Below are positions 6,439 through 59,302 of a DNA stretch of 64,000 bases, piece after piece. The stretch is from contig OX597828.1 of assembly GCA_951406725.2 (NCBI GenBank), positions 63,736,001-63,800,000 of the forward strand, in the 5' to 3' direction. The notes under the pieces are model-generated. The model had not been told where the DNA came from. It saw nothing but the letters and a program-made list of their open reading frames with translations, and did not search any database. This stretch comes from Octopus vulgaris (taxonomy: Eukaryota). The position numbers were made by a program, and so were the translations under genes. Position 1 is the first letter of the stretch; every line of letters begins with the position of its first letter.

Positions 6439-6800
6439 CGGGCTTCTTTCAGATCACAAGGCTTTGATCGGCCCGGGGCTATTGCAGAAGACACTTACCC
6501 AAAGTTCTACGCAATGGGACTGAACCCGGAACCATGTGGTTGGTAAGCAAGCTACTTACCACACAGCCGCTTCTGCACCTAGTTATGTATATATCTATAT
6601 ATGTGTATCTTTGTGTCTGTTCTTCACCACTGCCTTGCAACCGGTGTTGGTTTGTTTCCATCTATGTAACTTAACAGTTCAGCTGAAAGAAAACGATGAT
6701 ATAAATACCAGACAAAATAAGAACCGGGGTTGGTTCCTTCGATAGAACTTTCCAAGGCGTACTCCAGCATGGGCGCAGTCCACTGATGGAAAAGAGAAAA
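6436..6800. mobile_element. Two SINE fragments of the 30978 family (5' half on minus 6436-6580; 3' half on plus 6600-6800)
   Basis: gggactgaacccggaaccatgtggttggtaagcaagc (minus head) followed by gtaacttaacagttcagc...ccagcatgggcgcagtc (plus tail). Confidence 0.7.
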
Positions 6801-57774: not shown

Positions 57775-58066
57775 TCCTTTACTTCTTAAGTCATTAGACC
57801 ACGGCCATACTGGGGCACTGCTTTGAAGGGTTTTTGTCGAATAGTTCGACCCAGGACTTTTTTAAAGCTTAGTACTTATTCTATCCGTTCCTTTTGGCGA
57901 ACCGTTAAGTTAGGTGGACATAAACACAGCAACACTGGTTGTCAAGCGATGGTGGGAGACGAACAGAGATACAAATACGTATATATACATACATCCATGC
58001 ATGCATGTATGCATACATACATACATACATACATACATACATACATACATACATACATACATACAT

Positions 58067-58099
<33 letters not shown>

Positions 58100-59302
58100 T
58101 ACATACATACATACATACATACATACATACATACATACATACATACATACATACATACATACATACATACATACATGCATGCATGCGACGGCTTCTTTCA
58201 GTTTCCGTCTACCAAATCCACTCCCAAGGCTTTGGTCGGCCCGAGGTTATAGTAGAAGACAATTCCCCAAAGTGTCACACTTGTGGTTAGGATCAAGCTT
58301 CTTTATTTCATTTAATTTGCCACAAGGGCATCACACAGATGGAAGCTTTGCGGGCTGGACACGGACATTAATGGGATGAATGATAATGATGTAAAAATGA
58401 TGATGATGGGAGAAGACGAAAAGCGCCCGCCGACTTCTCTAAAACAATGTTCTTTTTTCTTTTTTCCCGAAAACACAATGAGGCAATAAACCTCTTACAT
58501 AAAAAAACACAATGTTCAGATATCTTTTTTCTTTTTTAAAACACAATGAGGCTATAAACCTCGTACATTACACAAAAAGTCACATATTTCACATTTTGTA
58601 GACTCGTTCAGGTTATCCGGCCGACCAGTATCCTTGCTTCATTGAAGCATGTACTCGGTTCCAGGCCGGACCACACAGCCATATATCTGTAGGAGCCCTC
58701 CAGGAAGGAATTCATGATCCTGCACAGATCACTATCCCATAGGGCCTCCGCAGCCACCTGCGAAGGCCACTCAGGGTCCTCCATGCAGGACAGAAGTCCC
58801 TCCCATCGGCGCCGCCTTTCCATTTTCTTGACTTCACTTTCTATGGTTCCTCCTTTGTGGAAGAGGACCACAAATTCATCCTCCAGCGGTACACCCGCCG
58901 GAGGAGGATTGGGACACGCCGGCAGCGTGTCACAACCCGCCGGCGATGTCCCGTTTTTCTTCTTTCTTTTTTTCTTTTTCCCTTGGGCCGCGAGAGGGTG
59001 AGGTTCCTGTGATGCGTGCAGCAGGTCCTCCTTTTCTCCCGCAGCTCTCGGGTCCTTCGGTGGGCAACCCTTCGTTTTCGTTTTTTCGAGGAGGTGGAAA
59101 CCTCCTCGTCATCATCCTCCTTCTCTCCCTCCATTGAGGGAGCAGGGAGAGATTCCACTATTAACTGCTTCAGGATCCTATTTTGGTCCTTGGGACTGTT
59201 TTTCTTAATGTGACCGGTCTCCAGGCACAGGTGACACTTGGGAGGTGGGGCGTCCCTCGAGCATCACCGGATCAAGCTTCTTACCACACTGCCACGCCTG
59301 CG
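57775..59302 (-). mobile_element. tRNA-derived SINE (octopus OR2-like CORE-type), split by the 965-bp insert
   Basis: 57775-58303 matches the reverse complement of the copy at 30978, including the central microsatellite. The 5' head (ttaccacactgccacgcctgcg) resumes after the second TSD. Confidence 0.8.
58304..59268 (-). mobile_element. 5'-truncated non-autonomous non-LTR retroelement with a gag-like ORF1 zinc-knuckle fragment (HAL1/L1-Tx1-like)
   Basis: Exact 14-bp TSD ggatcaagcttctt at 58290-58303 and 59269-59282 interrupts a SINE. The minus strand reads PPKCHLCLETGHIKKNSPK (CX2CX4HX4C with the last C as S), in frame with ORF 58841..59158, then a UTR ending in an A-rich tail. Confidence 0.8.

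Follow-up and report, generated by a model that had tools for sequence, protein, structure and literature searches.

The window analysed here, a 64,000-nt stretch of the Octopus vulgaris genome, contains a SINE interrupted at 58304..59268 (minus strand) by 965 bp of another element, which encodes part of an ORF1 protein and then ends without any reverse transcriptase. How is such an element copied, and why does it lie at this point? The sequence-only reading proposed an ORF1-only retroelement that was inserted by target-primed reverse transcription and borrows its enzyme. Our preferred answer, to which we assign a probability of roughly 85%, is that the insert is a 5′-truncated copy of a multi-copy ORF1-only family residing at a fixed base of the SINE, and that a full-length L1-group element at the same base likely supplies the endonuclease and reverse transcriptase (RT) by which this family is copied in trans.

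The insert represents the 3′ half of a ~2-kb non-LTR element. Its ORF1 remnant, the C-terminal half of the protein (58608..59268, minus strand), reads as originally described: VMLEGR, a frame change, PPPKCHLCLETGHIKKNSPK, then an acidic segment and a basic one. The frame changes again after the first basic segment; the final coding stretch does end near 58608 (stop at 58608-58610), but spans ~155 codons rather than the ~90 first counted. The CX2CX4HX4C zinc knuckle (59195..59236, minus strand) is intact in relatives, whereas the window copy has Ser for the last Cys. Past the stop lies a UTR of the expected length, about 300 nt (58304..58607, minus strand), without ORF2; the internal repeat noticed in it is real and consists of two 51-nt direct repeats (58457-58507 and 58525-58575, 78% alike). 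As to the A-rich end proposed earlier, the insert carries no poly(A) and finishes in a fixed terminus, ..AAATGAAATA. The window copy is 90.7-94.8% identical to its nine closest relatives; taken alone, it is an unremarkable dead remnant, 5′-truncated and decayed.

An exact 14-bp repeat flanks the insert (downstream copy 58290..58303, upstream copy 59269..59282, both minus strand); it has no other copies in the window, and SINE halves are present on both sides. The repeat had been taken for a 14-bp target-site duplication. It is exact, but its final 4 nt in the upstream copy (ATCC, 59269-59272) are shared with the element where truncation occurred and represent microhomology, so that not all of it is duplication. 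Because ATCC also matches family sequence just 5′ of the break point (in six of the seven relatives displayed), the 5′ junction was likely joined through microhomology. Target duplications, 5′ truncations and microhomology recur across the family and bear out its origin by target-primed reverse transcription. Contigs of four sequencing runs, from four organisms, match the insert over most of its length, in short segments; contig joints across it derive from many other SINE copies and are uninformative on an empty allele here.

A search with the insert returned 46 matches, 32 of which, besides the insert itself, are collinear over its whole length (40 of 2,105 candidates scored). An intact relative contains an ORF of 397 aa, and this protein in turn gave at least 107 matches, many without stops (104 of 13,235 protein candidates scored). 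Full-length copies measure 1,849-2,450 bp (n = 37), or ~2 kb, and are built of one ORF of ~395-415 aa and a UTR of ~300 nt, without ORF2. As predicted, ORF1 in longer copies runs directly into the tail: 19 of 20 elements, viewed in 10-kb stretches, end 235-350 nt past the ORF1 stop, the remaining stretch has no tail, and ORF2 lies between ORF1 and tail in none. Upstream of the first 30 of 161 exact window-type tails found genome-wide, ORF1 is present in 21, nine give no match, and ORF2 is found in none; together with the 32 other full-span matches, this upholds the ORF1-only call and refutes a one-off internal deletion. The proposed comparison with HAL1 is apt as an analogy but not as an assignment to HAL1 proper, given the lack of an L1 ORF1p match, the CCHC knuckle and the invertebrate host. 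Subfamilies are 53-65% identical in protein, and the ORF1-only lineage has been active recently, since seven copies of another subfamily share 97.9-99.7% identity.

The earlier reading did not notice that the SINE site is the fixed target of the family, common to a full-length element. The 3′ end can be recognised in 48 of 50 loci chosen by element similarity. The target follows it in every one of these 48, with at most two mismatches in 15 nt in 45 of them (background, 36 of 64,000 window positions). The exact target 7-mer directly follows 106 of the 161 window-type tails; of the first 30 such tails, 27 are at the target and three (L220, L231, L236) are not. The flanks of these three still open with AAGAA or AAAAAG, so the RNA may itself bring along the opening bases of the target. 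Copies at the target often stand in tandem, and those from different subfamilies stack head to tail. The first 83 of 574 exact junctions, chosen by target pattern alone, comprise 49 ORF1-only, 13 ORF2-ending and 21 unmatched cases, the classes being automatic and some 5′ boundaries miscalled. At L214 (~1470-1526), the 5′ piece of a tail at the SINE site is inverted, resembling twin priming.

An autonomous element of 5.44 kb with two ORFs shares this base and belongs to what is probably the helper lineage. Its copies are mostly 98-99% identical; the 20 chosen for their ORF2 similarity all occupy the same SINE base, and both ORFs are open in two of them. ORF2 contains APE, RT and zf-RVT domains, and its best match among solved structures is human L1 ORF2p (E = 1e-66; R2, 1e-19). 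Two ORFs, an APE endonuclease, an RT and a C-terminal zinc motif place the element in the L1 group, and its adherence to one base (20/20) is the kind of target preference seen in many Tx1 members. This architecture and targeting make Tx1 membership likely; among the 120 RT matches listed, the nearest named one is from Argonauta, and none is a named Tx1 protein. Autonomous and ORF1-only copies form mixed tandems (L198, L204, L225). Their nucleotide similarity is confined to the last ~35 nt, BLASTN detecting the last 19 alone. The top zf-RVT families were also considered as helpers and rejected, as they do not use this SINE site. Two further arrangements were observed: five copies of another L1-group element, spaced ~5.4 kb apart, form a tandem array (G000:C2:73,046,133-73,068,136), and at L021 (G000:C20:58.22 Mb) an ORF1-only copy is immediately followed, on its downstream side, by part of the helper endonuclease region in inverted orientation.

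From the common site, the common tail and the mixed tandems, all features of sequence, we infer that the ORF1-only family is mobilised in trans. The RNA of such an element would be coated by its own ORF1 protein, and the helper ORF2 protein would recognise the common 3′ stem-loop, nick the SINE site and prime reverse transcription there. For the window copy, synthesis would have stopped within ORF1, the end being joined through the 4-nt microhomology. We see about an even chance that transcripts bear target sequence at both ends, which would help target pairing and restore the landing site for later copies to stack on. The actual helper of the window subfamily was probably an earlier relative of the young element sampled, because the subfamily is older than the latter.

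A different L1-group family, or any of several, might mobilise the ORF1-only elements instead. At least four ORF2-ending tail types are found at the SINE site, a loose resemblance in the ends extends to other L1-group families of the genome, and the window subfamily lies mostly in the AAGAAG variant of the target, the young helper in AAGTAG. Nevertheless, just one of 30 zf-RVT loci of other families abuts the target, and that one in a tandem. Moreover, site choice of Tx1 elements is attributed to the endonuclease in the part of the literature drawn on here (PMC4494074), and the helper must therefore be a family with this target. We accordingly regard mobilisation by another family as improbable.

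The ORF1 protein bears on what the family is. Across its core it aligns with ORF1 of two-ORF LINEs in the same genome (25-36% identity), which rules out a pseudogene of a host gene, and it is ~20% identical to helper ORF1. Pfam recognises a weak knuckle only (E = 1.6; 0.008-0.02 in relatives), similar to that of retroviral nucleocapsid, and neither Pfam nor PDB sequence searches returned an L1 ORF1p match. The single protein-database homologue is an annotated Octopus sinensis protein, 65% identical. In a low-confidence structural model (mean pLDDT 61.7), the top fold matches are tandem-RRM proteins (E ~1e-4, low TM-scores). The model would divide the protein into a pair of RRM-like domains, the knuckle, a linker that appears disordered and a C-terminal domain of small size. 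Between subfamilies, dN/dS is 0.18-0.24 in the core (at dS 0.5-1.3), 0.19-0.42 in the linker and 0.37-0.65 in the C-terminal part, as estimated by the Nei-Gojobori method on 15 copies selected for open frames; these ratios indicate that purifying selection maintains ORF1 between subfamilies.

In quick trees the ORF1-only lineage (lineage A) is one group with SH-aLRT 100 on a long branch, and its placement as sister to the helper is not rejected by the AU test (p = 0.15). The same SINE site is also used by another ORF1-only group, decayed and with a different tail (L150, L159, L164, L165, L183, L186); its ORF1 is placed by quick trees among two-ORF elements, possibly because ORF2 was lost there on a separate occasion. 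The AU test only marginally rejects a single clade of groups A and B (p = 0.04). If ORF2 loss recurs in this way, the elements might be repeated or recent internal deletions of the autonomous element with ORF1 a mere leftover, and the protein candidates scored were 104 of 13,235. This alternative is largely refuted by lineage A, a single group whose subfamilies have diverged to the extent given above, are all ORF1-only where checked, and combine dN/dS ~0.2 with many open frames; we hold it to be very improbable. As for the idea of a gag-only LTR element, or of a processed pseudogene derived from some zinc-knuckle gene of the host, which the Octopus sinensis protein and the nucleocapsid-like knuckles might bring to mind, we give it hardly any credence, since dozens of intron-less copies examined all occupy one target base, with 5′ truncations, no poly(A) and no terminal repeats seen, and the LINE ORF1 homology likewise refutes it.

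Returning to copying in trans by a helper at the same base, the tails offer two candidate recognition features. A hairpin near the insert 3′ end (58318..58330, minus strand; 4-bp stem and 5-nt loop) is common to the autonomous element. Its stem is TGCC/GGCA in 49 of 83 tails, and nine others carry paired double changes: GGCC/GGCC (4), CGCC/GGCG (3) and TGTC/GACA (2). A 7-nt UTR motif (58342..58348, minus strand) is complementary to the downstream target, and in the window copy it is predicted to pair with the read-through RNA. Absent in 25 of the 83 tails, the motif tracks the target variant in 57 of the other 58 (47/47 for one variant, 10/11 for the other); counted over tail clusters the split is 10:0 against 0:7, related copies not being independent. 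One further exception occurs among the first 30 window-type tails. Both motif variants are found in ORF1-only and in ORF2-ending elements, at differing distances from the end.

At the other end, the upstream repeat of full-length copies tracks the element family at positions 10-14 and not the local target, so part of the target is likely carried at the element 5′ end. One subfamily has the same variant upstream, and not downstream, in 5/5 copies; the helper, when in a TTAC-type target, keeps TAAC upstream in six of 24 copies; one position-8 variant is found on both sides. We tentatively speculate, at somewhat less than even odds, that the passenger lineage, an ancient one, and its L1-group helper both pick the SINE base with the aid of RNA-target pairing, that the motif has switched with the SINE variant in both, and that the element-borne target at the 5′ end rebuilds the site.

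The host SINE continues on either side of the insert. Its head (5′ part, 59283..59301, minus strand) includes what we take to be an A-box-like motif at 59284-59294 (minus strand), the A- and B-box-like motifs of the head being judged by eye against the box consensus. The following part (58186..58289, minus strand) leads into an (ATAC)n array at 57981-58184; it is short of ~24 nt, including the presumed B-box-like stretch seen after the target in other copies. No tRNA match to the SINE head was obtained by Rfam (one empty copy) or ARAGORN (three loci). Genome-wide, exact copies of the 33-nt empty site number 58,747 against the 574 exact filled junctions. Three more empty target copies, with at most five mismatches, lie in the window at 6564, 11962 and 30993.

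Several components of this system are already known separately, namely ORF1-only LINEs, transposon-targeting Tx1 elements with passengers, and mixed arrays at the R1 site; we did not find their combination in the literature. ORF1-only LINEs are a recognised class that includes HAL1 (half-L1), with several independent origins reported, HeT-A and Ag-Sponge; the source clades of non-autonomous LINEs with ORF1 given in the consulted parts of these reports are Jockey, L1 and CR1, and Tx1 is not listed there (PMC5786205, PMC5753468). Like these elements, the octopus family encodes ORF1 alone and presumably needs an autonomous LINE. Unlike HAL1, which derives from mammalian L1, it lacks poly(A), its ORF1 is of the CCHC type, and it is specific for a single SINE base.

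Among Tx1 elements, Tx1 inserts in Tx1D, Tx1-Mar in Mariner-N4_AMi with SINEU passengers, and Tx1-9_AMi in Harbinger; the passages of this source used here name no SINE target (PMC4494074). These are likewise APE-type elements that target another mobile element and share it with non-autonomous passengers, whereas in the octopus a SINE head serves as target and the ORF1 encoded by the passengers is under selection. ORF1-only elements of the Jockey clade at Drosophila chromosome ends also show repeated ORF2 loss, long-lived ORF1-only lineages and head-to-tail arrays with autonomous partners (bioRxiv 10.1101/2025.06.09.658640, as far as consulted); the octopus system differs in its L1-group affiliation and in its SINE sites, which are dispersed and number in the tens of thousands. 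R1 and the R2/R1 SIDEs in 28S rDNA resemble it in the 14-bp target duplication and in tandem arrays mixing autonomous and non-autonomous copies; SIDEs, however, lack any protein-coding capacity, rely on a ribozyme and insert into rDNA (PMC3414825, in the sections drawn on). A 2026 paper on Octopus vulgaris repeats, in the part consulted, counts L1-Tx1 families without further treatment (80, of which 13 were recently active; PMC13282606). We found no description of an ORF1-only, SINE-targeting LINE family in the literature; Repbase, Dfam and the Zenodo library of PMC13282606 may contain its sequences.

The system thus has three tiers: a SINE with ~59,000 exact landing sites, a LINE that targets them, and ORF1-only passengers that outnumber this LINE at the site (49 against 13 of the 83 junctions). 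It offers natural material for asking what maintains ORF1 in some non-autonomous LINEs and whether site choice by an APE-type retrotransposon is aided by RNA, and open-frame copies of both partners exist, which opens both questions to cell tests.

ORF1-only forms may be common among the L1-group elements of this genome. At L118 (minus strand, 70-1972), at a non-SINE site, another type of ORF1 is followed by a tail and then by the next element, with no ORF2 between them; ORF1 sequences similar to that of L118 occur at L111 (8516) and L127 (7536).
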